This document shows positions 1,988 to 18,035 of a stretch of 64,000 nt of DNA, piece by piece. Each line of letters begins with the position of its first letter. Within the stretch, counting starts at the first letter, position 1. Below the pieces are notes generated by a model. It saw only the letters and a program-made list of their open reading frames with translations. It had not been told where the DNA came from and did not search any database. The stretch comes from Candidatus Woesebacteria bacterium (GTDB taxonomy: Bacteria > Patescibacteriota > Microgenomatia > UBA1400 > PJMF01): the NCBI GenBank assembly GCA_050123235.1, contig JASFHL010000003.1, positions 50,077 to 114,076 of the forward strand. The letters run 5' to 3'. The position numbers and the translations under genes were made by a program.

Positions 1988-3297
1988 TATCTTTTTAATT
2001 TGATTTTTATTAATCTTTGGATACTACTGACTACAATACTAGCAATTATAACTGAACCAATAGTAAGATTGAAAATATGAAATGTGCCATTTTCAACCAT
2101 GGCACCAGCTGTAATAGCAAGTAAAGCGTATGGTAGTTTAGAGATTAATGCAACTGTTGATAATGTTGTTGCCCTATATTTAGATGCAATTTCTCTATTT
2201 ACTACAATCGAAACCCAAGGGTATGCTAATTGACCACTTACTGCTATCAGGAATAGAGGAATTACTCCTAAATAACCAAGTTTAAAAAAGGCTAACATGA
2301 AACCAGACCCCATTACTAAACTCAAAAAATATAAGCCTCTTTTATCTGAAATATATTTACGATAACTGGGAATAAACTTAACTAAGATTGCTCCGACAAT
2401 GCCAAATAAAGCAAATAGAATAGCTTGCTCTTTATCAAAAAAACCAAAACTAGTTGCCATAGCAGGTTTAATTAAACCCCAACTATATAGATAATCAGCT
2501 CCAAGTAAAACAAAAATAACAACCACAAATGCTTGTAATTGAGGTTTAAATAATTCAACTGTTCCTCTGTAAAGTTGTTTTACATAACTATTCAAAGAAA
2601 ATTTCTCTGTATCTATTTTTGGTTCTGTCAAAAATAGAGAAATAAAAAAAGCTAAAGCATAAGCAAAAGCCCAAGCGTAATGTGGCAATCTAAAATGAAT
2701 GACATAAAATAGCCCGCCAAGCAATGTAGCTGTAATTGCTGATATAGTAGCAATTGTGCCACTAGTAGAAATAACTTTATCGTAAGACTGTTCTTTATTT
2801 CTATCCACTAAAGTATCATATGCCAAAGCTTCTGCAGAACCAGAATATAAAGCCCAACCCAGTTGAGCAAACATAAATGAAATCCATATTTGAGTTAAAG
2901 AGCTAGCTGAAGCAAAACCAAAAATACTTATAGCAGCCAGCAACATTGAAGCTACAATTGTTCTCTTTTTACCTAATAAATCAGATACTGCACCTGAAGG
3001 GACTTCCATAAGCAAACCAAAAGCAAATGCAGAAGCATCAACCCACCCAAGTTGTCCATAAGTCATAAATCTTGTCCAAAAAAATATCCAGTTACCTGCA
3101 ATAAACCACAGATTGTTAAAAGTTGTTAACAAATAAAAAAGGGCAATATTTTTAATCTTAATTTCTGGAAATAAGACACTTTTAACTGGGGGTGGTGTTT
3201 CAATTTGAACGATTTCAGGCACGAAAATATTATACTTTAAATCCTGATTAAGCGTCTTAGTTAAAATTAATAGGAAATATTCATGGTATATAGTCAA
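1987..3297 (-). CDS. MFS transporter
   Basis: 436 aa, ~12 predicted TM helices, MFS-like loop motifs. Confidence 0.7.
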   Translation of the reverse strand: MTIYHEYFLLILTKTLNQDLKYNIFVPEIVQIETPPPVKSVLFPEIKIKNIALFYLLTTFNNLWFIAGNWIFFWTRFMTYGQLGWVDASAFAFGLLMEVPSGAVSDLLGKKRTIVASMLLAAISIFGFASASSLTQIWISFMFAQLGWALYSGSAEALAYDTLVDRNKEQSYDKVISTSGTIATISAITATLLGGLFYVIHFRLPHYAWAFAYALAFFISLFLTEPKIDTEKFSLNSYVKQLYRGTVELFKPQLQAFVVVIFVLLGADYLYSWGLIKPAMATSFGFFDKEQAILFALFGIVGAILVKFIPSYRKYISDKRGLYFLSLVMGSGFMLAFFKLGYLGVIPLFLIAVSGQLAYPWVSIVVNREIASKYRATTLSTVALISKLPYALLAITAGAMVENGTFHIFNLTIGSVIIASIVVSSIQRLIKIKLKR

Positions 3298-3309
3298 TAA
3301 GATGAATAC

Positions 3310-3552
3310 CTAGTTTTTTCTATTTCTTAAATTCCTTTTAGTTAGATCAATTTGTAATCCTTGTAACCCTTGTTGTATTTGAGCTAATAGAGCCTGTGGA
3401 TTCATTCCAGCCTCCGCGGCAAGTTCCTGAAATATCCTCATAACAACAGTTCTATCTTGAGCTGCTTCTGGAAATTCTCTAAAGAATGTAACAACAACTA
3501 ATTCATCTCCTTGTCTTAATTCTTTCAAATGGGCTAAAGTTATTTCTGACAT
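3310..3552 (-). CDS. hypothetical protein
   Basis: ORF track, no recognisable motif. Confidence 0.4.
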   Translation of the reverse strand: MSEITLAHLKELRQGDELVVVTFFREFPEAAQDRTVVMRIFQELAAEAGMNPQALLAQIQQGLQGLQIDLTKRNLRNRKN

Positions 3553-3572
3553 TTTATTCTTTTTTAACCAAA

Positions 3573-3604
3573 AATCTTAGCTTAGTTTTGCTAGAGCTAA
3601 GATT
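3573..3604 (-). terminator. 10-bp perfect-stem hairpin (aatcttagct/agctaagatt) followed by U-run on minus strand
   Basis: seen in sequence; lies between the R-M operon region and gene 3310..3552. Confidence 0.3.
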
Positions 3605-3668
3605 ACTAATATTCAAGAATATATATTATACTATTTTTTTTCTAAAAAACGTGAAAAGGTAGTTAATT

Positions 3669-3842
3669 ATGAAAACAAACTTTACTTGGCTCCCAGGTTC
3701 CCCATTTGCTCTGTACGATATATTCTCTGGAGAGTCTTTAGCGAGGGTAAAAAATCAAATAGAGGTCTTAAACAAAATTTTAACTTCAAAACCTAAATAT
3801 GCAGTCGTAAAGGTAAGTAATGGAGAGTTTGTTAAGCTTTAA
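3669..3842 (+). CDS. small hypothetical ORF (57 aa, below ORF-track cutoff)
   Basis: ATG 3669, stop 3840..3842, MKTNFTWLPGSPFALYDIF...; located just upstream of the hairpin array. Confidence 0.25.
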   Translation: MKTNFTWLPGSPFALYDIFSGESLARVKNQIEVLNKILTSKPKYAVVKVSNGEFVKL

Positions 3843-3852
3843 AATGTCTATC

Positions 3853-4110
3853 ACCTGTGAGTCAGGCTCACATTAAAACCATATTCGCCTGGAGAATATG
3901 GAGTGTATAGAAAACTGTTCCCCAGGGGAACAGTTTTTCCCATTCCGTAGATGGAAGGGTAGAAATTCAATAACTGTGAGCCTGGCTCATAGTTTTCCCT
4001 AAAAGTGTAAGCCTGGCTTACACTTTATTGGTTGAAGCGAGAGCTGTAAGCCAGGCTTATAGCTATTCGCCAGGCGAACAGCTCCTAAAGGGTCTATGCC
4101 AGGCAAGTAC
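3853..4110. repeat. array of at least seven palindromes/hairpins each centred on a CCWGG pentamer
   Basis: 3856-3872 tgtgag-tcagg-ctcaca; 3888-3908; 3911-3937 aaaactgttcccc-a-ggggaacagtttt (perfect); 3974-3992; 4002-4026 aaagtgtaagcc-t-ggcttacacttt (perfect); 4041-4084 compound (gagctgt..acagctc enclosing two CCAGG hairpins); mismatches are G.T on plus strand. Confidence 0.6.
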
Positions 4111-4114
4111 CCTT

Positions 4115-4894
4115 TTACTTTTCAATCTCTTTTACCGCCTCTCTATAAGCACAATAGTCACAATCCTCACCAGCATCAGGAATAGAATCACTATTTAAAC
4201 ATTTATGAGCACTCTTTATAGCTTGTTCAACCCAGCCATCAATTCCCTCATAAGCGATTAAAGTTATATTAAACTCAAGTTTGGCATCAAAAGCTTCTTT
4301 GTCTGTAATTCCATTACAATAGACAAAATAGCCTGTATCAGAAACTTTGTACTCATTTTGCCTTAGTAGCCACTGATACACCTCCATTTGACGCTTATAG
4401 CCTTCTTGCCAGTCCTTATCTAGCTCTGTTATCTCTTCACCCTTAGAAGTTGACTTGTAGTCAACAACAAGATATTCATCTTTAGAGTTGATCCATAAGT
4501 CATCAATGGCACCAAAGATTAATAAGTTAGTAGGCTTATGTAAATATTGAACCCCTACAAAATTTTGCCTCCAGTCGTCTAGCTTCTCATGGGCCACTGG
4601 CTTAGCATCTACCCCATACTTTTCTATCAATGGATGTTGTGTCCCATTAGCCCTATGAACATCAAATTCAAGCTTCAGAAGCTTATCTACGGCACTATTT
4701 AGAGCAAAAGGGAAACCAGGTGGTCTAGATACGCCTAAGCGTCTATCTAAATAAAAACATCTAGGACATTCTAAAAACAGGTCAATCTTAGATCGGCTCA
4801 ACTTAAAGGGTTGCTTAGAGCCTGGTTGGTAACAATATTTTGCTGATCGTTTAGCATTATAGTATTGAGACATAGTTATTTTTCTCCAGTCCAA
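4115..4894 (-). CDS. PD-(D/E)XK nuclease, Cas4/RecB-nuclease-like with 2+2 Cys (possible Fe-S)
   Basis: IDDLW...EYLVVDYKS (D..ExK), QMEVYQWL (QxxxY), N-terminal CPRC and C-terminal CDYC; 19-nt overlap with hsdR. Confidence 0.6.
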
Positions 4895-7800
4895 TCTTTA
4901 GCTAACAACTCTGCTTGCTCTAAGACAATTTTCGTTGCCCCCTCTTGTTTGTCGGGCGGGTACTTATACTTCTTCAACAGTCTTTTTATATAGACCCTAA
5001 GTTTAGCCTGGACACTTTCTTTAATAGTCCAGTCAATCGTGGTGTTCTTGCGAAGCATGTTTACCAACTCTTTGGCCATGGCTTTGAGTGTTTTATCTCC
5101 CAACTCCCTAACGGCACTTTCGTTATTTGCCAGAGCATCATAAAAAGCCACTTCTTCCTCAGATAACCCAAGGTCTTCTCCTTTGTCTCGCTCTTTTTTA
5201 ATCTTTTTAGCTAGCTCTAAAAGCTCTGCAATAACTTGGGCCGCTTCCAAGGTTCTGTTTTGATATTTTCGGATTGTTTCAGCCAGCATGTCAGCAAAGG
5301 AACGTGACATAACTAGATTCTTTTTAGTCATGGTTCTCAGCTCATCGTTCAAAAGCTTTTTCAACAGTTCCAAAGCCACATTCTTATGCTTCATATTTTT
5401 AACTTCAGCTAAAAACTCTTCTGAAAAAATGGAAATGTCTGGGGCTTTAATTCCAGCGGCAGAATAAATGTCAACTACATGGTCTGAAGCTACCGCAGAA
5501 GATACTATCTGCTTAATTGCCACATCATAGTCATCATCAGTTGGACCGCCACCTATAGGCTCCATCTTTACAATCCCACTCCTCACTATCTGGAAAAAGG
5601 AAACCTCATCTCTAATCTTTATTGCCTCTTCATGCGGAACCGCTAAAGAAAATGCCTTAGAGAGCTCAGAAACGGCTTTTAAGTATCGTTTCTTGCCATC
5701 TTTAAGCCCTAATATATAGTTTGTCGCTCCAGAGATAGTTTGAGTTCTTTCTGCTGGTGTACCTGTCAAATATTTCTTGTAGTCAAAGCCGTGATACATG
5801 CTCTTAACCACTTCGTATTTCTCAAGCATTAAAGAAACTGCTTTATCTTGAGGAATCGCTGTTTCTTGCCTGTCACTTTCAGAGTAATAAGATAGGGCTT
5901 CTTTTAATTGAGGAGCAATGCCAATGTAGTCAACGATTAAGCCACCCTGTTTGTCTTTATAAACCCTGTTCACCCGAGCAATGGCCTGCATCAAACCATG
6001 GCCTTGCATTGGCTTATCTATATACATGGTGTGAAGACAGGGAACATCAAAACCCGTTAACCACATATCTCTCACAATCACCAGCTTCATTTCATCATCT
6101 GGGTTTTTCATTCTCAAGGCCAACTCATCTAAAACGTGTTTTGGCCTGATATGGGGCTGAAAATTCAAGGGGTCAGAAGCAGAACCAGTCATCACTACTT
6201 TAACCACGCCTTTTTTATCATCATCGCTGTGCCAATTGGGTCTGAGTTTGACTATCTCGTTATAAAGGTCAACGGCAATTCTTCTACTCATGGCCACTAT
6301 CATGCCCTTGCCCTCAATAGCGCTTTGTCTATTTTCAAAATGTTCTACCAAGTCACGAGCCACCAGACTAATTCTTTTCTCTGAACCCACCATTGCTTCA
6401 AGCCTGGCCCACTTACTCTTGAGCTTTTCTTTGCGCTCTACTTCTTCACCCTCAGTTAACTCTTCGAACTCAGGGTCAATCTTAGGCTGTTCTTCTTTTT
6501 TCAACTCGATTCTTGCCAGCCTAGCCTCATAGTAGATAGGTACTGTGGCTTTATCCTCAACTGCTCGGGTTACATCATATACATCAACGTATTCACCAAA
6601 AACAGCTCGTGTATTTCTGTCTGTTAACTCAACTGGAGTACCAGTAAAGCCAATAAACGAAGCATTGGGAAGAGCATCTCGCATGTGGCGAGCAAAGCCT
6701 TTGATAAATTCATACTGGCTTCTATGTGCCTCATCAGCAATAACAACAATGTTTTTCCTGTCAGAAAGTTGTGGATACGACTTATGTCCGTTCTGAGGTA
6801 AAAACTTCTGTATGGTCGTAAATACCACACCACCAGAGGCTACTCTTAATAGTTCTTGTAGTTCATCTCTATCATTGGCTTGCTTAGGAGCCTGTCTGAG
6901 TAAATCGGAACATCTAGAAAAGGTTCCGAAAAGCTGATTATCTAAGTCATTCCTGTCAGTCAAAACAACCAAGGTCGGATTATTCAGAGCCTGAATTACC
7001 TTACCAGCATAAAAAGTCATGGTTAAACTCTTACCAGAGCCCTGAGTGTGCCAAACTACACCCGCTCTTCTATTTCCCTTTTCCTTGGTAGCATTAAAGG
7101 TGCTTTCAATGGCTTTATTGGTAGCAAAGTATTGATGATAAGCGGCGGCCTTCTTGACTGTCTTTTCACCATCAGTTTCAAAAACAATAAAGTTGTTGAT
7201 TAAATCCAAGAATCTAGTCTTATCAAAAATACCTTTAAGCAAAACCTCCAGTTGAGGGAACGCATTAGGGGCCAATTCTTCACCGTCAACTGTTCGCCAG
7301 CGAGTAAACCATTCAATACTAGCGCTTATTGTCCCAACTTTTGCTTCCAAACCATCACTAATAATTGAGAGCTCGTTATAAGTAAACAAAGAGGGAATAC
7401 CTTGCTTGTAGGTTTGAATCTGGTTAAAAGCACTCTTTACTGTAGCCTTCTCATCGCCTGGATTTTTCAACTCAATCACCACAACAGGCAAACCATTTAC
7501 AAAGACTACTACATCTGGGCGTCTGTTTACATTATTCTCAATAACCGTATACTGGTTAACTGCCAAAAAGTCATTTTTCTCAATATTTTTAAAGTCAACC
7601 AATTTCACCTTATCACCAGCCACCGAGCCATCCTCTCGCATATATTCAACATCTACACCATCCCTCATGTATGAGTGAAATATCTTGTTGTTAAGCACAA
7701 GACTAGGCGTAGCATTAGTAGCTTGCAAAACCTTTTTAACAGCTTCTTCTTTAGCATCTGCTGGAATGTTGGGATTAAATTGGTCGATAGCAGAACGAAG

Positions 7801-7957: not shown

Positions 7958-10399
7958 TTAATTTATATTTACCTTATCTGTTATTTTAATAAACGATTGA
8001 ATGTGCTTATCTAGTTCAGATATAGCAGATGGTATTTCCTTATCTGCATGTAGCAAATTTGAGTAATTGCAATATTTATATAAACTAGTTAACTTTTTTA
8101 AGTCGTCATCTGATAGTTTGCTCAGTTTGCTCCTGTTAGTTACCAAGTTATTAGTAACATCCTCAAATTTGTCTTCTTTGTTCCACATCAGCAAGTCATT
8201 CTTAATGAATCTTTCGATTGCGAGGCGTAATAACTGCCCATATTTAAGAGCCAGGGCTTCCATTTTAAGAGTTCCTTTGCTTACTTCATCTGATATTTCT
8301 TTATAACAACCCTTAACTTCACTTAATACATCAAATCCAGGGTCAACAAAGATAAATCCTCCTCCAAATTCTTCTCTGTTTTTTAAGACTCCAAACCTAT
8401 TTGAGTCTGGCGAAATACATTTAGATAGGTATTTATAAAATAGTGGATGGTGAGTAAAAATAAATACCTGACTAAAATCCTTAGTTTGAGAATGAATAAG
8501 CTCAGCTAAAATTTTCAAATTCGGAGCATCTAGACTCGTAATTGGGTCATCAAAAACAAGTATCTTTGCATCCTTTGATTCAAGCTTTTTGTTTAAAGCA
8601 AAAAAGAAAGCTATTGATATTATTTGTCTTTCTCCTTCAGACAACCCTTTTTTAAACTCTCTTTTATTATTACCTTTATCAATAACTTCAAAAGAAAATG
8701 GATATTCTTTAGTGTTTGGAGCTGGTTTAATATGTTTCAGTGAAAACGCCAGTTGAAAATTTTTTAGAATCGAATCCATCTCCTTGATAATAGAAGCTGG
8801 AATTTTTTTGGCTAAGTTGTTATCTAGTTCTTGCTCAAAGACTTTAATTTCTGATTGGAGAGCTTCCTTGTTCGAGTTAACCTTATCAAACTCTTTTATC
8901 TTGTCCGTTTTTTTATCAGAAATAAATGTTATCTTTTGAATAATGTCTGTGTTCTTTGATTCTAGTGATTGTATTTCTCCTGTTATTTTTTCTTCGCTTT
9001 TATATTTATCTTGGAAATTTTTTATTAAAGTATTTTTTAACTTTCTGAGTTCTTCGAGAGAATCAGCAAATAGTTTTAAGTCAGAAGTACCTTTAAGAGT
9101 GTTTAGAATATATCTCTTCTTTTTATCTTTATCTGCAATATCTATATTTTTTAACTCTTGAGCATACTTTTTAGCCTGCTCTGTTTGATCTGCAAAACTA
9201 TTTATCTGAGTGTCCTTTTTATGATATTTTTGTTTCTCTTCAAGAGAATATATGCCTTCAATCTTGAAGTCTTGATATAGTTTTTCTAAATTGGAAAAAA
9301 TTTCGTCTCTCCTTGTAAACAACTGAGCGATTGTGCTTTTTATTTTCTCTAGCTGTTCTACAAACAAGTCAATATCATCTATGTATTTTTTCTTTTGCTC
9401 CTCGTAAGATTTATCAAAAATCTGTTTGTAATAATTTATTACCTTAGTTGCGCCACTCAAGGACTGAGCACAAAGGGGACAGTCTTTTTCTTGAGGATTA
9501 AGTATCCTCTGATAGTTAGAATCTTTTTCTAGAAAACTTTTGTGTTTCTGAAAATGTGTTTCCAGAGCCTTATCAGTTTTAACTTCAGCTTTTTGTTTGA
9601 TGCTTCTATTAAATAACTCCTTAATTCCAGGTTCATCTAATAAATCTAGGTTATAACTTATCTCATCAATCTGTTTAATATTTTTAATGAAATCTATTTT
9701 CTTTAATAAACCTCGTATGGTTGCTAGCTTATTCTCAATTTCTTTTTGTTGTTTTTTTAGACTCTTTATTTCTTTTGCCAGTGAAGCTTGTTTTTTGTTT
9801 TTATAATTTTCGAATAATACTCTCTCTTCCTGAGTAAACGTGCTTTGTAATGCCAGCTTATTTGCTTCTAGAAATAACTTTAGTTCTTCCTTTTTTTCTG
9901 CTATCTGCTTTTTAAGTACATTAGCTTCGCTATCCAAATTGATAACCAAGTTGCCTGCATTTTGAGAATGTTGGCCTTTAAGGTTGCTTCTGGTTCCGTG
10001 TGTATGAATATTTTTGTTTACAAAGTCTATATCAAAAAATAGAATCGGGTTATTTTCCGTGGTTTGCTTATCCCAAGCTTGCTTTTGATAGGTAAAAACA
10101 GTTTGTTTTTTAGTTTTATTTATATGAACTTTCCCGTCTGGAGATTTATTTGACTTTGCCTCAATTTCTTCTGCTTCCAGAACAACCATCTCTGGATGTT
10201 TTTCTTCAATAGTTTCTACCCCAACCAAATCTTTTAATATTTCGCATACAGTTGTTTTTCCTGAACCATTTTCGCCAAAGAATAAGTTGAAGGGGCCAAA
10301 AACACATTCGTCAAGTTTTGCATTTTTACAGAAAGCATCCCATTTAAAATCTGTAAATGATTTATATTTAGTGATTTTATTTATCTTTTTTATCTTCAT
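7958..10399 (-). CDS. rloC: RloC-like anticodon-nuclease-family ATPase (PrrC homologue with Rad50-like coiled-coil/zinc hook)
   Basis: 813 aa; N-terminal Walker [10 protein letters not shown], long coiled-coil with central CPLC zinc-hook-like CxxC, distal [11 protein letters not shown] (Walker B/D-loop), C-terminal extra domain; embedded between hsdR and hsdS. Confidence 0.55.
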
Positions 10400-10400
10400 G

Positions 10401-11612
10401 TCAATTTACTCTCAACTTCCCACTCATTAGTCTTGGTAATAAAGAGCCACGTATTGATGATAATTTTTCGTTTTCCAAGGCATTTATTTTAATTTGCTGA
10501 AATATGGGTTCCATCGAATTGTGAAACTTTCGTATCAATGCTGTTTGAGGTGATTTTAATTTGTAGTTTCGAATAGCATCAATTTGAACTCGTTGTCTCC
10601 CAGAGCTTCCGACCATGCTTTTAATTGCATGTTGTCGAAATTGCTCATTCCTTACTAAGAAATAAACATATTCTCTATACTGATTGTCGTTAGGTCTGAA
10701 AACTATATATTCCGTGGAACCAAAAGCTAGCTCACCAGCTTCTAAGAAGCTTACCAGGGCACTTTTGCCATTCTCTAAGCAGGGGGTGATTCTGGCCATT
10801 AGTGAATCACCGTTCCTGAATTTTGAACCTCCTTTATAAGGTTTGCTAATCTGAGAGGAAACCCACATTCCTTGTTCTGGTAAATCTTTCATCTCAACAT
10901 ATTTGGTAGTTTCTCCTTTTTTTAAACTCTCTCTAGGATTCAATTCAATAAGACTTTCTAGTGCTATCGCGCCTTCCAAGGCTTCTGAATCCACAAACCA
11001 ATTCTTAAACAGAGCCTTACCCATTTCCTCCAGGGTCTGATTCGTCTTTCGATTTAATTCAATTTTTTCATCGAGAGAGCCCAAAACAGAAGCTATCTTT
11101 AATTGCTCATCATAAGACGGTAACAAAACCCTTACTTTTCTGAACTCCGACTGTCTTATGCCTTTTACAACTGAGCCAGTAGCTCTAGAAACAAGCTCTT
11201 GTTGTCCTATGTATGAAAGCAAGTAATATTTAAGAAAAGTATTGTCTAGTTCACCGTCTTTTCCCCGTAAAGTTAACAGCCTTTGGGCTAAACCTATATT
11301 TGCAGTATCAAGCTGAGCAACTTCACCTAAGGGAGCTTCTGTAGTTATTACAACGTCTCCTTTTTTTGGCAATCCTCTTGTCATCCAATTTTTCCAAGTT
11401 TCTTTGGTAATATACTCAGGATTGGAATAATCTATCCTTCCCGCCTTAACAACCTTTGCAGTCACAAGAGGTATCCCTGAATTTGTTTTTGGAGGTGTCT
11501 TGCCTCTGTAGTCAATAATTTTATCCAAGACATCAACGGATTTTACTATTCTCCAACTTTGGGGAATCTCACCAATTTCTGTTTGTTTGTAGTTAGTTTG
11601 TTGTTTAGTCAT
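10401..11612 (-). CDS. hsdS: type I restriction-modification specificity subunit
   Basis: 403 aa, two target-recognition domains separated by conserved central/terminal coiled repeats (LPSYDEQLKIASVLGSLDEKIELN ... LLPRLMSGKL). Confidence 0.85.
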   Translation of the reverse strand: MTKQQTNYKQTEIGEIPQSWRIVKSVDVLDKIIDYRGKTPPKTNSGIPLVTAKVVKAGRIDYSNPEYITKETWKNWMTRGLPKKGDVVITTEAPLGEVAQLDTANIGLAQRLLTLRGKDGELDNTFLKYYLLSYIGQQELVSRATGSVVKGIRQSEFRKVRVLLPSYDEQLKIASVLGSLDEKIELNRKTNQTLEEMGKALFKNWFVDSEALEGAIALESLIELNPRESLKKGETTKYVEMKDLPEQGMWVSSQISKPYKGGSKFRNGDSLMARITPCLENGKSALVSFLEAGELAFGSTEYIVFRPNDNQYREYVYFLVRNEQFRQHAIKSMVGSSGRQRVQIDAIRNYKLKSPQTALIRKFHNSMEPIFQQIKINALENEKLSSIRGSLLPRLMSGKLRVN

Positions 11613-12360
11613 TTCTGCTTATTAAGTCATAGGCTAGACTTGCCAATGATATGTAATGAATAGCCAAGTTCTTATCTAATTTTGTTGCTGGAGTATGTGA
11701 TTTTTCATTTCTTAAAAACTGTATAGCCATGTGTAAAAATTTAATCCCTTCGAAAAAATCCCTCTCTGCGTCATCTTTTGGCAAATGTCCAAATATTTTT
11801 TGGTAGTTACTTTTGTTAAAAGCATCTGTAGCTTTTTCTTTACCTGTAATATCTTTTAGTTTTTTTCTTACCACTTTGTAGGCTTCTTCAACCGCATTAA
11901 AATAATGACCATCGTTTAGTAAATTTTGAACATGATTAAAAATCTCATCTTGAAGCGTAATAGTGATATTCCCATTTTTGAAACTTGCTTTAAGCGCAGC
12001 CTCTTCTTTAATTGTTGTTTTACCAAGCAATCTTTGGGCAATCTTATTACCAGCATTTACTCTTGCCTTTGGAAAATCGTCTCTGTTGAGATTTTCTACT
12101 AAAATTTGAGTTTCAATATAAGAAATCAGTTTAAGAATGCTTTTGGCAACAGTGGTGTCATCGGCAGTGGACCAAAAACCCCGCATTCTATTAGCCTTTG
12201 AACCGCTAGCATAGTTATATTTCTGGCTATAAATTTTAATCTTCAGGTCATCTCTAAAAAACTCTCCCATTGTCCTGTCTGAGAAATTCAAAACATATCC
12301 ACTCTCCATCTGAAAAAGCTTTTCTAAGATTTGTTTTTCGTTTGTCGTTAAATTAGCCAT
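11605..12360 (-). CDS. HEPN-like (Rx4H motif RNEKSH) Abi_C/TIGR02391-like protein embedded in R-M operon
   Basis: C-terminal helical region with FLRNEKSHTP; 8-nt overlap with hsdS start and 2-nt gap to hsdM stop. Confidence 0.45.
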   Translation of the reverse strand: MANLTTNEKQILEKLFQMESGYVLNFSDRTMGEFFRDDLKIKIYSQKYNYASGSKANRMRGFWSTADDTTVAKSILKLISYIETQILVENLNRDDFPKARVNAGNKIAQRLLGKTTIKEEAALKASFKNGNITITLQDEIFNHVQNLLNDGHYFNAVEEAYKVVRKKLKDITGKEKATDAFNKSNYQKIFGHLPKDDAERDFFEGIKFLHMAIQFLRNEKSHTPATKLDKNLAIHYISLASLAYDLISRND

Positions 12361-12362
12361 AT

Positions 12363-13901
12363 TTATAAATCAAATCCTACTTTTGCTAAGTTCTCTTTAA
12401 TTTTCTTTTCTAACTCTTTAGACTCTTTGAATTGTTGACTTAACTCATTTGTGAGTCTTTTCATTTTCTCCTCAAACACCTCGTCATCTTCCATCTCAAA
12501 ATCTGTACCTACATAACGACCAGGAGTTAACACAAAACCATTCTTTTCTACTTCTTCAGTTTTGGCAGCCTTACAAAAACCCTTAACATCTTCATACTTG
12601 CCATTCTTATTTCTCCAGTTGTGATAAGTGTCAGCAATTCTTTGTAGCTCTTCTTCTGTCAACTCTCTATGCCTTCTATCTATCATCTTGCCTAATTGGC
12701 GAGCATCAATAAAAAGAATTTCATCGTGGCGGTCACGGAATTTGTGGTTATATCTATCTCTACTTACAAACCACAAAGAAGCGGGAATGCCTGTTGTGTA
12801 AAAGAGTTTATCTGGCAAGGCCACAATACAGTCAACCAAACCAGCCTTGATTAAACTTTTTCTAATCTTTCCCTCATTAGAAGTATTGGAAGATAAGGCC
12901 CCATTGGCCATGACAAACCCAGCTATACCTTCAGGGGACAAATGATGAATAAAATGCTGAATCCAAGCATAGTTGGCATTTCCTGTTGGAGGCGCACCAT
13001 ATTTCCAGCGCACATCGTCTCTTAGCCTCTCTCCACCCCAATCACTATCATTAAAAGGAGGATTAGCCAAAATAAAGTCTGCTTTTAGGTCCTTGTGTTG
13101 GTCATTATGGAAACTGTCTGCATCGGAAGTACCAAGGTTACCCTCAATTCCTCTAATAGCCAGATTCATCTTACAAAGGCGCCAGGTAGTAGGGTTGCTC
13201 TCTTGCCCATAAACTGAAATATCGCCAGTCTTTCCTCCATGCTCTTCTACAAACTTCTCACTCTGCACAAACATACCTCCAGAACCACAACAAGGATCAT
13301 AAACTCTGCCCTTGTAAGGCTCTATCATCTGAACCAGAAGTTTAACTACTGAGGCTGGAGTATAGAACTCACCACCACCCTTACCTTCTGCACTAGCGAA
13401 TCTCCCAATAAAATACTCATAAACTCTGCCCAATATGTCTTTAACCTTAGCTTCTTTATCTCCTAAACCTAGAGAGCTGAAAATATCGATAATCTCTCCT
13501 AAGCGCTGTTTGTTAAGGTCTGGTCTGGCAAATCTTTTTGGAAGTACGCCTTTGAGAGTAGGGTTGTCCTTCTCAATGGCTATCATGGCATCATCAACAA
13601 GCTTACCTATCTCTGGTTTCTTAGCATTTTGCTTTAAATAATCCCAACGAGCCTTTTCTGGTACCCAGAAAGCATTTCTAGCTTTGTAAGCATCTTTATC
13701 TTCCCATTCACCATCAAAAGCGTCTTTGTCAGCCTTAATTGCTTGGTAGATATCTTCAAAAGAGTCTGAAATGTATTTGAGAAATATCAAACCCAAAACT
13801 ACATGCTTATACTCGGCTGGGTCCATATTGTTACGCATTTTATCTGCGGCGGCCCACAACTTTTTTTCAAAGCCAAGATTGGCTGTGGTTCTTTTTGTCA
13901 T
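12363..13901 (-). CDS. hsdM: type I R-M DNA methyltransferase subunit (N6-adenine)
   Basis: NPPF motif (ILANPPFN), AdoMet motif, conserved HsdM N-terminus [16 protein letters not shown]; ORF-track start 13991 is a 30-aa over-extension that runs into the upstream HTH gene, so start set at 13901. Confidence 0.85.
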
Positions 13902-13929
13902 AATTTTCTTAATTCTCTTTTTATTATTT

Positions 13930-14109
13930 TCAACTATTTTCTTTAAGATATTTTTTAATATCTTCTTGGCGATAACGTCTATCACCAACACCCTTACGAC
14001 TTCCGATTCTGACTGCCTTTAATTTACCTTGATTATCCCAACGTCTTAGCGTTTCTGTGTTTACTTTTAATAATTCAGCTGCTTCTTTTATTGTTAGTAA
14101 TTTCTTCAT
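13930..14109 (-). CDS. excisionase/MerR-like HTH DNA-binding protein (59 aa, below ORF-track cutoff)
   Basis: [36 protein letters not shown]...; paralogous to 15793..16017; first gene of the R-M operon. Confidence 0.5.
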
Positions 14110-15792: not shown

Positions 15793-16017
15793 TTAAGATG
15801 ATTTCTGCGAATCCTGAGCACCCCCATCTACGCCAGATTCATCGATAAATATCTTAAGATCAGACTCAGAGAAACGATATTCACCCTTACCACTATCTCC
15901 AGGGAGCTTAATAAACTTTATTTTCCCATCACGACACCAACGTCTAACCGTTTCTGGATTGACGTTAAACATTACTGCTACATCTTCGATAGTTTTGTTG
16001 TAGGTAAGTTCACTCAT
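15793..16017 (-). CDS. excisionase-family HTH DNA-binding protein
   Basis: VAVMFNVNPETVRRWCRDGKIKFIKLPG typical excisionase/MerR-type HTH. Confidence 0.55.
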   Translation of the reverse strand: MSELTYNKTIEDVAVMFNVNPETVRRWCRDGKIKFIKLPGDSGKGEYRFSESDLKIFIDESGVDGGAQDSQKSS

Positions 16018-16329: not shown

Positions 16330-16494
16330 ATGAAAAAAATAATAGGTTATTCTCGCATATCAAGTATAAAACAGTTATCTGACAATCAACTAGCTAAAAG
16401 TCAAAAAGAACTGGTTGCTGAATATGTGAATAAAAATAGATGCAAATTAATAGTGACGAATAACGATAGATTTTGCAGAAAGGGAATGAAATGA
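16330..16494 (+). pseudogene. serine-recombinase N-terminal fragment (54 aa) directly upstream of full-length recombinase
   Basis: MKKIIGYSRISSIKQ.. mirrors catalytic N-terminus (xxGYxRVSTxxQ); stop overlaps recombinase ATG (ATGA). Confidence 0.4.
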
Positions 16495-17996
16495 AAAAAG
16501 CAGTTGTCTATGCCCGAGTTTCAGACCCAGGACAAGTTGGAGGTTTGTCACTCGATGTTCAAAAGGAAAAGTGTGCAGAATGGGCAAAGAAAAATAAGTA
16601 TCAAGTAGTCGGGGTATATGAGGATGGTGGCAAAACAGGAACTAAAACAGTAGGTCGTGAAGGTTTAGAAGATATGATTATTCAATGTCAAGAAGAAAGC
16701 ATAAATGTGGCTTTGGTGATAGATACAGACAGAATTGCTAGAAACGAATTTGATCATTATAAAATCGTACACATTCTTAGGGAAAGTAACACTCAACTAG
16801 TAGCAATAAACCAACCAATGATAGATGATTCTGCAGAAGGTAAGCTCATGGAAGGCATGTTAGCCAGTATTAATGCCTTTTATAGTCGTCTAACAGGTCG
16901 CAAGGTTAAAAAAAGTCTAGAGAAGAAGCTCAAGGATGGTGATTGGCCTGGTTGGGCTCCTCTTGGTTATAAGAATGTTAATCTAGGCTCAGAAGACAAA
17001 CCCCATCGTGTTATTCAAGTTGATGAGGATAAGAGTTCCCTCATTAGTGAGTTATTTAAACTTTACTCTACGGGTAGCTATTCGGTTGACGAGCTAGTAG
17101 ATCATATAAACAAGAGGGGTCTAAGAAGCAAAACAGGCAAAAAAATGTATCGCAGTATTGTTTATGAGATGCTTAAAAACCCTTTCTATATCAGCTGGAT
17201 GAAATATAACGGTCAAACTTATAAAGGAAAACATAAAGCCTTAACCACACCAGAAATATTTGAAACCTGCCAGAAAATCATGGATCGGCACAACCATAAT
17301 GCCTGCAGAAGAAGAAAGTACAAGTGGCTTTTAAATGGTTTTGCTTATTGCCAAGAGTGTAATGCAAGACTTTATGGAGATAGGGTTAATGCGAAAAATA
17401 AGGCCTATTATCACGGCAACTCTAGAAGTGGTTGTAGTCACTACATTCCTTTAGATGAGCTTGAAGACGCTGTAGCAGACGAATTTAAGAAGATCGAGTT
17501 ATCAAAAGAGTTTATCCAAGCAGTTTTAGATAAAGCTAGAGAGCTTATCAAACAGTCTAGAGACTCCAGAACATCTGAGATAAACGGCGTGAGAAACGCT
17601 ATCAAAAAATTAGAAGATAAACGCAATATTCTTGAAGATAATCTCTTGGACCAAACCATTGATAAAGAGTCATTCAAGCGTAAACATCAAGACCTTAATT
17701 TTCAAATTCAAAACTTAGAGAATGATATAGCTACTATTGAAAACCAGAGAGGCTTTGATGTTGATGTGATAGAGGAGGTCTTAAAGCTCACCAACAACAT
17801 CTATGAGGTCTATTGTGATGCTGGCTTTGAAGCCAAGCGCCATTACTTAGCTATTTTCTTTGAGAGATTTGATATTAAAGACAAAAAGGTGGCAAAAGTT
17901 ACCTACACACCACTCTTTAAAAAGCTACTTGACTCGAGGAAAGTTAGAGTAAGTAGTAACTGGCTCCCCAGGTGGGACTCGAACCCACAACCTTGA
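16491..17996 (+). CDS. large serine recombinase (resolvase/invertase N-domain + recombinase domain + zinc ribbon + coiled coil)
   Basis: MKKAVVYARVSDPGQ catalytic motif, CQECNARLYGD zinc ribbon; likely start ATG 16491 (track start is TTG at 16473); 3' end overlaps tRNA-Asn. Confidence 0.85.
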   Translation: MKKAVVYARVSDPGQVGGLSLDVQKEKCAEWAKKNKYQVVGVYEDGGKTGTKTVGREGLEDMIIQCQEESINVALVIDTDRIARNEFDHYKIVHILRESNTQLVAINQPMIDDSAEGKLMEGMLASINAFYSRLTGRKVKKSLEKKLKDGDWPGWAPLGYKNVNLGSEDKPHRVIQVDEDKSSLISELFKLYSTGSYSVDELVDHINKRGLRSKTGKKMYRSIVYEMLKNPFYISWMKYNGQTYKGKHKALTTPEIFETCQKIMDRHNHNACRRRKYKWLLNGFAYCQECNARLYGDRVNAKNKAYYHGNSRSGCSHYIPLDELEDAVADEFKKIELSKEFIQAVLDKARELIKQSRDSRTSEINGVRNAIKKLEDKRNILEDNLLDQTIDKESFKRKHQDLNFQIQNLENDIATIENQRGFDVDVIEEVLKLTNNIYEVYCDAGFEAKRHYLAIFFERFDIKDKKVAKVTYTPLFKKLLDSRKVRVSSNWLPRWDSNPQP

Positions 17997-18035
17997 AGTT
18001 AACAGCTTCCTGCTCTGCCATTGAGCTACCGGGGA
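17961..18035 (-). tRNA. tRNA-Asn (anticodon GTT), CCA encoded
   Basis: hand-folded: acceptor TCCCCGG/CTGGGGA, D-arm GCTC-AATGGCA-GAGC, anticodon loop CTGTTAA, T-arm GTGGG-TTCGAGT-CCCAC, discriminator G; one G.A at top of anticodon stem. Confidence 0.65.

Follow-up and report, generated by a model that had tools for sequence, protein, structure and literature searches.

A gap between two convergent genes of a Candidatus Woesebacteria bacterium is filled by short palindromes, almost all centred on CCWGG, and lies directly against a type I restriction-modification (R-M) operon, which raises the question of what such an element is: a set of methylation or restriction sites, a structured RNA, a member of a dispersed repeat family, or something else. 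The stretch of DNA analysed, hereafter the window, comprises 64,000 nucleotides (64 kb) of contig JASFHL010000003.1, and all coordinates refer to it. The gap between the two stop codons (3843-4114, 272 bp) is wholly occupied by eight odd-length palindromes of 19-29 nt (P1-P8, 3855-4115), with CCWGG as the centre of seven and TCAGG as that of P1. The array is real and far beyond chance, its units belong to one repeat family which is confined to this locus within the sequence examined, and it may serve as a strand-symmetric barrier at RNA 3′-ends. Its parts are as follows.

P1, 3855-3873: CTGTGAGTC-A-GGCTCACAT; degenerate centre TCAGG, one T.G pair on the plus strand
P2, 3879-3901: CCATATTCGCC-T-GGAGAATATGG; one G/A mismatch, paralogue of P7, followed by TTTTAATG on the minus strand
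P3, 3911-3937: AAAACTGTTCCCC-A-GGGGAACAGTTTT; perfect (13+1+13), flanked by an A-tract and a T-tract as in a bidirectional terminator
Linker, 3938-3971: the longest in the array, with a weak hairpin and the tetranucleotide GTAG twice (ccattccGTAGatggaaggGTAGaaattcaat)
P4, 3972-3994: AACTGTGAGCC-T-GGCTCATAGTT; G.T at pair 7-21, followed by TTTT on the plus strand
P5, 4002-4026: AAAGTGTAAGCC-T-GGCTTACACTTT; perfect (12+1+12)
P6, 4042-4064: AGCTGTAAGCC-A-GGCTTATAGCT; G.T at pair 7-21
P7, 4061-4083: AGCTATTCGCC-A-GGCGAACAGCT; A/C on the plus strand (G.T on the minus strand), sharing an AGCT overlap with P6
P8, 4087-4115: AAAGGGTCTATGCC-A-GGCAAGTACCCTTT; three imperfections, followed by TTTTACTTTT on the plus strand

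P1 begins a few bases past the point at which the homology of the small-ORF (open reading frame) relatives stops, and the right arm of P8 contacts the stop codon of the nuclease gene (4115-4117). CCWGG is found seven times in 216 bp where 0.24 occurrences would be expected from the rest of the window (Poisson P ~7e-9), and of the window's 35 hairpins whose stems measure 10 bp or more, six fall within the 205 bp of 3879-4083, against 0.09 expected (Poisson P ~8e-10; ~3e-7 when corrected for the number of windows). No other hairpin of the 64 kb with a stem of at least 10 bp has a CCWGG centre. Arms of at least 6 nt were found at only six of the 77 CCWGG sites of the window, all inside the array, P8 qualifying only if more than one mismatch is allowed; the 70 sites outside the array include none with an arm of at least 6 nt and none in palindromic context. 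P6 and P7 together form a compound palindrome (4041-4084) with 22-nt arms that are 77% complementary. An earlier note, made from the letters of the sequence, had described a CCWGG hairpin array abutting an R-M/nuclease operon, with two perfect palindromes and a compound one enclosing two hairpins. All of this was confirmed, the perfect units being P3 and P5, the compound one being recovered by a repeat finder, and the operon being a type I system whose nuclease stop lies at P8; its statement that the centre is always CCAGG or CCTGG holds for seven units and fails for P1. A mechanically called ORF overlapping the array (4028-4198, plus strand) was taken as spurious.

Aligned on their centres, all units fit the pattern TRT-NNN-CC-W-GG-NNN-AYA, or in its fuller form aa-C-T-R-T-NNN-CC-W-GG-NNN-A-Y-A-G-tt, in which the inner triplet is variable yet complementary. 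The T6-A22 pair is invariant, T8-A20 and both C-G pairs of the apex are nearly so, and variation is concentrated in the inner triplet and the outer flanks. The repeat finder placed five units in one 24-nt family (D1) and linked P2 with P7 (D9) and P3 with P7 (D6). Three sub-types could be distinguished (P1/P4/P5/P6, P2/P7, and P3), and one two-unit block is present twice, as P1-P2 and as P6-P7, with a 7-nt indel separating the copies. The units are paralogues descended from one family, within which blocks of two and three units have been duplicated, and the view of the earlier note that the shared centre did not reflect common descent of the stems is contradicted by the duplicated blocks and the shared T6-A22 and T8-A20 pairs.

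The arms vary in concert. In the eight units of the window 85.6% of the stem cells are paired, with 20 double-change cells distributed over 8 of the 13 pairs, a level that none of 500 shuffles matched, and when the structure is slid along the units only 31-42% of the cells are paired. For 16 units, i.e. these eight and the eight of the orthologous array described below, the corresponding values are 87.5% paired, 40 double-change cells, 0 of 500 shuffles, and 31-43% on sliding. Base pairing, or palindromic symmetry as such, is thus actively maintained, and across relatives pairing is kept by covarying changes, as the earlier note had proposed to check. Its further suggestion of selection on both structure and pentamer fares unevenly: selection on structure is plausible, and selection on the pentamer is not supported, as the invariant T6 and the nearly invariant T8 lie outside it and CC/GG constitute the apex pairs. 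Pair 7-21 is non-Watson-Crick in 9 of the 16 units, and when one and the same strand is read it is G.T in part of them and A.C in the rest; this mismatch marks the polarity of a unit, and both polarities are present. The central base is A in seven units and T in nine, never G or C, and CC and GG are each kept in 15 of the 16.

Orthologous arrays were found on the contigs L140 (ENA) and L141 (JGI), in which the nuclease is 90% identical as protein and 85% as DNA, and in which the same arrangement recurs: the nuclease, eight CCWGG-type palindromes (Q1-Q8), and the convergent 3′-end of the small ORF. The array and its CC/GG apex are therefore conserved at the orthologous locus, with a palindrome density above the window background, which is the opposite of the outcome that the earlier note had named as fatal to its proposal. 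Two colinear blocks can be aligned, P5-P6-P7 with Q1-Q2-Q3 (66/83 positions identical) and P1-P2-P3 with Q4-Q5-Q6 (65/83), in permuted order, and P8 is related to Q7 of L140. L140 keeps the linkers GGAGTGTRTAGAAA and TTTATTRGTTGAA, and has no clear counterpart of the 3938-3971 linker.

The orthologous units differ by six double compensatory changes in all: three between P5 and Q1, which also differ by one uncompensated change, two between P3 and Q6, and one (G-C to A-T) between P1 and Q4, the latter with CCAGG as its centre in place of the TCAGG of P1. P3 and Q6 are both perfect palindromes, with the centre of Q6 flipped relative to that of P3. The centres of P7 and Q3 differ, that of Q3 being CTTGG, while their outer mismatch is kept, and Q5 is more decayed than P2. 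Between identical flanks Q2 matches P6 exactly once it is reverse-complemented, the centre (A to T) and the mismatch (G.T to A.C) having changed together, and the difference is an in-place flip. Flipping toggles the centre between A and T and the mismatch between G.T and A.C, and a centre restricted to A or T is the expected outcome when the interior of an A/T-centred palindrome is repeatedly inverted. The unit type TTCGCC/GGCGAA occupies three positions in L140 vs one in the window, which suggests that inter-unit conversion has spread this type in L140. Judged from the pair of arrays, the modes of remodelling are duplication of units and blocks, permutation, replacement of unit types, and in-place flipping of palindrome interiors; DNA-level palindrome dynamics demonstrably operate at the array and can mimic compensatory evolution.

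Identity between the two lineages is 52-59% at fourfold-degenerate sites in the nuclease and in the C-terminus of hsdR (81/146 pooled, 55%), vs 131/166 (79%) for the array blocks including linkers (Fisher p = 1e-5). The array has been retained in the relative as a whole and is more conserved than synonymous sites, a difference which indicates either that it is under purifying constraint or that it was exchanged more recently. Elsewhere it is absent: beside the small-ORF homologues of L007-L009 and L142 other genes follow directly, and beside nuclease homologues of 82-91% identity (L084-L092, L138/L139) homology stops at the stop codon. The nuclease stop is where homology of the R-M module is lost in every context examined.

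The units fold stably on either strand, with dG of -6 to -16 kcal/mol (-15.3 kcal/mol on either strand for P3), and the fold of the whole array has a z-score of -9.8 on the plus and -7.4 on the minus strand. The long-range P1:P4 and P5:P6 pairings of the minimum free energy (MFE) fold are not kept in L140, as judged by inspecting the sequences by eye, so that the local hairpins are the conserved structure. When shorter stems are allowed, a run of 4-5 T follows the hairpin in P3, P4 and P8 on the plus strand, in P2, P3 and P5 on the minus strand, and in Q8 on both; units with A/T tracts or T-runs resemble bidirectional intrinsic terminators. A search of 3000-5000 against Rfam 15 at a permissive E-value returned only sub-threshold matches to microRNA hairpins (at most 22 bits vs gathering scores of 70-90). 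The earlier note had taken the plus strand to be the RNA, on the ground that G.U pairs rescue the imperfect stems only there. This is so for P1, P4 and P6, but P7 has the opposite polarity and P2 carries a G/A mismatch; G.T and A.C mismatches thus occur on both strands, P6 is exactly flipped in the orthologue, and the argument for a plus-strand RNA fails.

Whether the array belongs to a dispersed family was examined with patterns and with a covariance model. The family consensus at up to 3 mismatches matches the window only in the array (0.09 matches expected). A covariance model (R1) built from the 16 window and orthologous units and run with filters off gave no significant match in the window outside the array, and in 90 kb of related loci, including L137, it matched only the orthologous arrays of L140/L141; L137, which covers ~6 kb of the source genome past the right end of the window, has no long-armed CCWGG palindrome. 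The sequence of this and related genomes so searched comes to ~160 kb. A blastn query with 3600-4200 found no match among PLSDB plasmids or INPHARED phages. An exact-pattern scan of 185,579 species-representative genomes with AACTGTNNNCCWGGNNNAYAGTT, a pattern which matches 3 of the 16 known units and which did not return the source locus, gave 74 matches with no array and no candidate phyla radiation (CPR) genome among them. Isolated long palindromes in unrelated taxa made up 11 of the 74, and the matches in Scalindua and Nostoc were repeated, near-identical and non-palindromic, looking like one sequence copied across related genomes. The same pattern gave five matches in viral contigs, none with complementary inner triplets, which we attribute to chance. 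A scan of metagenome contigs with CTGTRAGCCWGGCTYAYAG gave 44 matches and no array in a collection that lacks the source locus, and is for that reason silent on dispersal within the source organism. Within the ~70 kb of the source genome examined and the related loci, the family is confined to one locus, and the dispersed REP-like (repetitive extragenic palindromic) family envisaged by the earlier note has no further copy in any sequence obtained.

The scans also brought up palindromes of other kinds. The first 780 positions of L119 (metagenome contig Ga0115006_10091524, 49% G+C), an unrelated contig, hold ~20 different long palindromes with stems of 9-22 bp in 800 bp; they form a larger mirror-symmetric structure, and one contains the 19-nt core CTGTGAGCCAGGCTCACAG. 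Isolated perfect or near-perfect palindromes with arms of 16-32 nt occur in L106 (~1577-1639), L108 (~5143-5207) and L126 (~3223-3285), and also in L044/L133, L134 and L101. These contigs are unrelated (36-60% G+C), and their palindromes have a common 19-nt core, CTGTGAGCCWGGCTCA(C/T)AG, with differing outer arms. The common core is probably a coincidence among functional hairpins picked by a palindromic query.

With regard to CCWGG as a target of methylation or restriction, no C5-methyltransferase motifs IV/VI were found in the six-frame translation of the window, which is a crude test, and CCWGG is not depleted there (77 sites vs 43 expected). The excess derives mostly from a segment of 62% G+C at 33.8-36.6 kb, which contributes ~15 of the 77 sites, and selection on the pentamer independent of hairpin context is not supported in the window. 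Type I systems are not known to recognise CCWGG-type sites. Since flipping explains the A/T centre, CCWGG need not be a recognition site, and we infer that it is the G+C-rich apex of the ancestral hairpin, i.e. two C-G pairs around a flippable A/T, and not a methylase or restriction site. The Dcm/EcoRII connection drawn by the earlier note is accordingly not sustained, CCWGG being neither depleted nor specially used elsewhere in the window.

The G+C-rich segment itself (~33800-36560, 2.7 kb, 52-66% G+C in a contig of 36% G+C) carries an ORF on the plus strand (34335-36485) for a secreted-looking protein of 716 aa with Gly-rich, beta-helix-like repeats and no NCBIfam match, and closes at a G+C-rich hairpin (36524-36555, tgggcccggcgcgcTTTTgcgcgacgggccca). 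Either recent horizontal transfer brought it in, or it is a chimera of the assembly.

We place at about even odds the reading that the array is a locus-restricted, BIME-like (bacterial interspersed mosaic element) cluster of hairpin repeats, retained as a strand-symmetric barrier at RNA 3′-ends. Hairpins would form in both convergent transcripts and thereby hinder read-through in either direction, would block 3′-exonucleases and so protect the 3′-ends of both mRNAs, and would insulate the R-M/defence operon from antisense transcription, while the units would be kept palindromic by arm-to-arm template switching or recombination together with inter-unit conversion. E. coli REP/BIME clusters so placed are reported to have these effects, and an element that is symmetric with respect to strand and sits between convergent genes has the look expected of a barrier to read-through in both directions and of a block to 3′-exonucleases. 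Several observations weigh against it. A consensus terminator scan calls only P2, on the minus strand, and terminator-like sites are not enriched in the genome (13 found vs 13.8 expected), so that canonical intrinsic termination may not be generally used here. Other close relatives of both flanking genes are without the array, which is therefore dispensable, and the pair P2/Q5 is decaying. The excess conservation, resting on two alignable blocks and one pair of lineages, could also be accounted for by recent recombination, and template switching with inter-unit conversion could by themselves yield the compensatory pattern without selection. The chief competitor is one that we hold to be unlikely: a hairpin unit amplified at a recombination junction would persist as palindromic DNA by self-correction and mutual conversion, with no role in RNA or for a protein. 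The in-place flip of P6/Q2, the A/T toggling of the centre, the permuted blocks and the spread of the TTCGCC type in L140 are what such DNA would display, and the absence of the array from all other relatives of both flanking genes, the decay of P2/Q5 and the unenriched terminator-like sites agree with it; it is at odds with the higher identity of array blocks and linkers relative to fourfold sites and with the eight units kept in both lineages, and self-correction alone does not predict invariant or nearly invariant T6-A22, T8-A20 and CC/GG amid variable pairs. Another possibility is that the array is a selected, island-borne structured element peculiar to this CPR lineage, a strand-symmetric module of many hairpins read by a hairpin- or cruciform-recognising protein. 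The recognised features would then be the invariant ones, namely the two C-G pairs of the apex and, at positions 6 and 8 of the stem, the T-A pairs; the reader might be the Cas4-like nuclease, a translocating HsdR stalled by cruciforms, or a host factor; and the array would adjust how the type I R-M/RloC-like system is expressed, targets itself or exchanges modules. There is little positive support for this version, and we think it improbable.

The remaining explanations each account for part of the pattern. That the array is a BIME of a genome-wide REP/REPIN family, mobilised by a RAYT-type (REP-associated tyrosine transposase) Y1 transposase elsewhere in the genome, is suggested by the imperfect-palindrome units of 23-29 nt with a recurrent polarity-giving mismatch in both orientations, by the conserved linkers and the convergent-gene setting, and by the two GTAG tetranucleotides of the longest linker. 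GTAG, however, sits in that linker and is missing from the ends of the units, the ORFs annotated near the array include no transposase, and apart from the orthologous array neither the covariance model, in the window and related loci, nor the genome and metagenome scans found a further one, with no CPR genome among the matches to the species representatives; the odds are clearly against this family. Double-stranded CCWGG sites for a Dcm/EcoRII-type or other binding protein, serving as decoy, regulatory cluster or methylation switch for the defence operon, would suit the 15 of 16 units that keep CC and GG, the exclusively A/T centre and the adjoining R-M genes; moreover, both degenerate centres are C-to-T changes, and that in Q3 (CTTGG) is at the position methylated by Dcm. 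Against this, the W centre follows from flipping, covariation of the arms means that pairing matters where recognition of double-stranded DNA would not need it, the invariant T6 and T8 lie outside the pentamer, the crude motif search of the window found no C5-methyltransferase, the neighbouring system is of type I, and CCWGG is not depleted in the window; we think this reading very doubtful. A strand-specific structured RNA, either a plus-strand 3′ untranslated region (UTR) of the small ORF or a CsrB-like multi-hairpin sponge showing its loops to a protein, would suit the many hairpins with conserved apex and variable stems, an architecture typical of sponge RNAs, together with the very stable fold and the plus-strand G.U pairs of P1, P4 and P6. 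We consider it highly unlikely, as the loop centre is A in seven units and U in nine, wobble polarity is mixed within the array and inverted for P6 in the orthologue, unit order is permuted and the long-range pairings are lost in L140, small-ORF homologues elsewhere have no array, and Rfam gave no match. Least credible are recombination sites of res, dif or attC type for the exchange of defence or cargo modules on the island: the array does lie exactly at the border past which neither flanking module has homology to its relatives, the nuclease stop closes the R-M module in all contexts examined, the island has a large serine recombinase, and the interiors flip, but no recombinase gene lies beside the array, the serine recombinase is 12 kb off, by the tRNA, and has an att repeat of its own, the units have no attC R″/R′ motifs and are far shorter than attC, and other insertions of the same R-M module are without such units.

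Some further candidates were rejected. LacI/CcpA-type operators (TGTAAGC|GCTTACA) and CRP-type operators (TGTGA-N6-TCACA) have similar half-sites; the spacing is wrong in both (3 extra bp in the former, N7 in the latter), and covariation of the arms is unexpected for a fixed operator. A CRISPR array was dismissed because the repeats are not identical and the spacers too short, and integron attC, resolvase res and partition centromere because required neighbour genes or motifs are missing.

The genes that set the array in its context are the following.

3669-3842, plus strand: conserved 57-aa ORF, convergent with the operon, stop ~12 nt before P1
4115-4873, minus strand: Cas4-like PD-(D/E)XK nuclease, last gene of the type I R-M/defence operon, stop adjoining P8
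4876-7956, minus strand: hsdR
7958-10399, minus strand: AAA_13 ATPase of 813 aa (PrrC/RloC type, PADLOC PDC-S06), between hsdS and hsdR
10401-11612, minus strand: hsdS
11605-12360, minus strand: Ymh/TIGR02391 protein
12363-13991, minus strand: hsdM
15793-16017, minus strand: ORF for an excisionase-like HTH_17 protein, near tRNA-Asn
16473-17996, plus strand: ORF for a large serine recombinase, abutting tRNA-Asn
17961-18035, minus strand: tRNA-Asn

The 57-aa ORF has five homologues of 72-86% identity with an identical C-terminus and encodes a genuine conserved small protein. Upstream of it, the divergent intergenic region 3553-3668, bordered by an 80-aa ORF on the minus strand (3310-3552) with a faint HTH_20 match, contains a 9-bp inverted repeat (ATCTTAGCT-N12-AGCTAAGAT, ~3575-3604) and promoter-like hexamers on both strands; this region may be an operator for a small regulator. 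The nuclease belongs to a family of more than 8000 database proteins at E <= 1e-10, which is conserved to an unusual degree, the best 120 being 74-100% identical (mostly 74-90%); some of these 120 are labelled by their sources as Paceibacterota, Buchananbacteria and Azambacteria, i.e. other CPR lineages. The operons of relatives embed differing genes (Shedu SduA, CpXC, a 152-aa ORF), and in L088-L091 (e.g. L088 5427-6659) the nuclease-terminated R-M module is followed by a helix-turn-helix (HTH) protein and a 314-aa reverse transcriptase (RVT_1), possibly a defence gene of retron or DRT (defence-associated reverse transcriptase) type.

A 14-nt exact direct repeat of the 3′-end of tRNA-Asn (GCTCCCCAGGTGGG) at 381-394 and 17963-17976 brackets ~17.6 kb, which hold, in addition to the recombinase, the excisionase-like protein, the type I R-M/defence operon and the palindrome array, an HTH_36 protein and MFS, GNAT and DUF1653 genes. 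This region is probably an integrated mobile island. Just upstream of both 14-nt repeats there is added similarity (GTAAGTA..AA), and a further HTH_17 ORF lies at 7-354; the two hint at tandem islands.

Work on clusters of REP/BIME type has dealt almost wholly with proteobacteria, whose genomes have hundreds of scattered copies, and a literature search for REP/BIME-like elements in CPR/Patescibacteria found nothing. Here an architecture of this type is seen at a single locus, as far as visible, within an ultra-small genome (CPR genomes measure roughly 1 Mb) and as part of a mobile defence island, and one pair of orthologues directly captures compensatory arm changes, in-place flips, replacement of unit types and permutation of blocks. 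The locus also advises caution, in that a restriction-site-like conserved centre with variable arms can come from descent and flipping with no enzyme needed. Should the array act as a barrier in both directions, a defence module would have in it an insulator that is compact and portable; were it read by a hairpin-specific protein, it would be a new kind of cis element of defence islands and not a generic terminator.

Among known systems, CsrB/RsmZ sponge RNAs are similar in having numerous hairpins whose stems vary while the motif at the apex is conserved; the apex of the array, in contrast, is A or U depending on orientation, with no GGA motif, no strand polarity, and an order that is not kept. 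Integron attC sites are likewise recombination-prone imperfect palindromes conserved more in structure than in sequence. They are 55-140 bp long, have RYYYAAC/GTTRRRY cores and extrahelical bases, and flank cassettes beside the IntI gene, whereas the units of 19-29 nt have neither such cores nor cassettes, and the only recombinase of the island is the serine type 12 kb off. The mutagenesis of quasi-palindromes by template switching, in which intramolecular strand switching perfects or inverts imperfect palindromes, as known from E. coli genetics, accounts for the coordinated changes of two arms and for the exact reverse-complementation of P6/Q2, but it is a mutational mechanism and not a class of element, and leaves conservation above the synonymous rate unexplained. 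To bidirectional intrinsic terminators the perfect or near-perfect P3, P5 and Q8 are akin, since A-tract and T-tract flanks give a hairpin with a U-run on both transcripts; the array differs in having eight related hairpins instead of one, most of them without a canonical U-tract.

The closest analogy is with the REP/BIME clusters of enterobacteria, which are likewise tandem clusters of short imperfect palindromes of one family, in both polarities and with conserved linkers, extragenic at gene 3′-ends and preferentially between convergent genes, with hairpin potential kept while the sequence varies. In E. coli ~60% of REPs lie between convergent genes, both genes tend to be more highly expressed when a REP lies between them in this way, and REP325, with its 12 hairpins, is reported both as a terminator and as an mRNA stabiliser (bioRxiv 10.64898/2026.03.23.713779). 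The part of the earlier note that proposed a REP-like 3′-UTR stabiliser or terminator cluster is therefore retained as the best functional model, without the dispersed family. The differences are that the array is without detectable genome-wide dispersal in the ~70 kb of source genome examined, that its units are shorter (23-29 nt), AT-rich at the base and G+C-rich at their CCWGG apex, that it is sited on a mobile island, and that its host is a CPR bacterium with no RAYT gene known for the array. It is thus a variant of the known palindromic hairpin-repeat clusters, distinguished by its single locus on a CPR defence island, its CCWGG apex, and the flipping and shuffling of units visible between two lineages.

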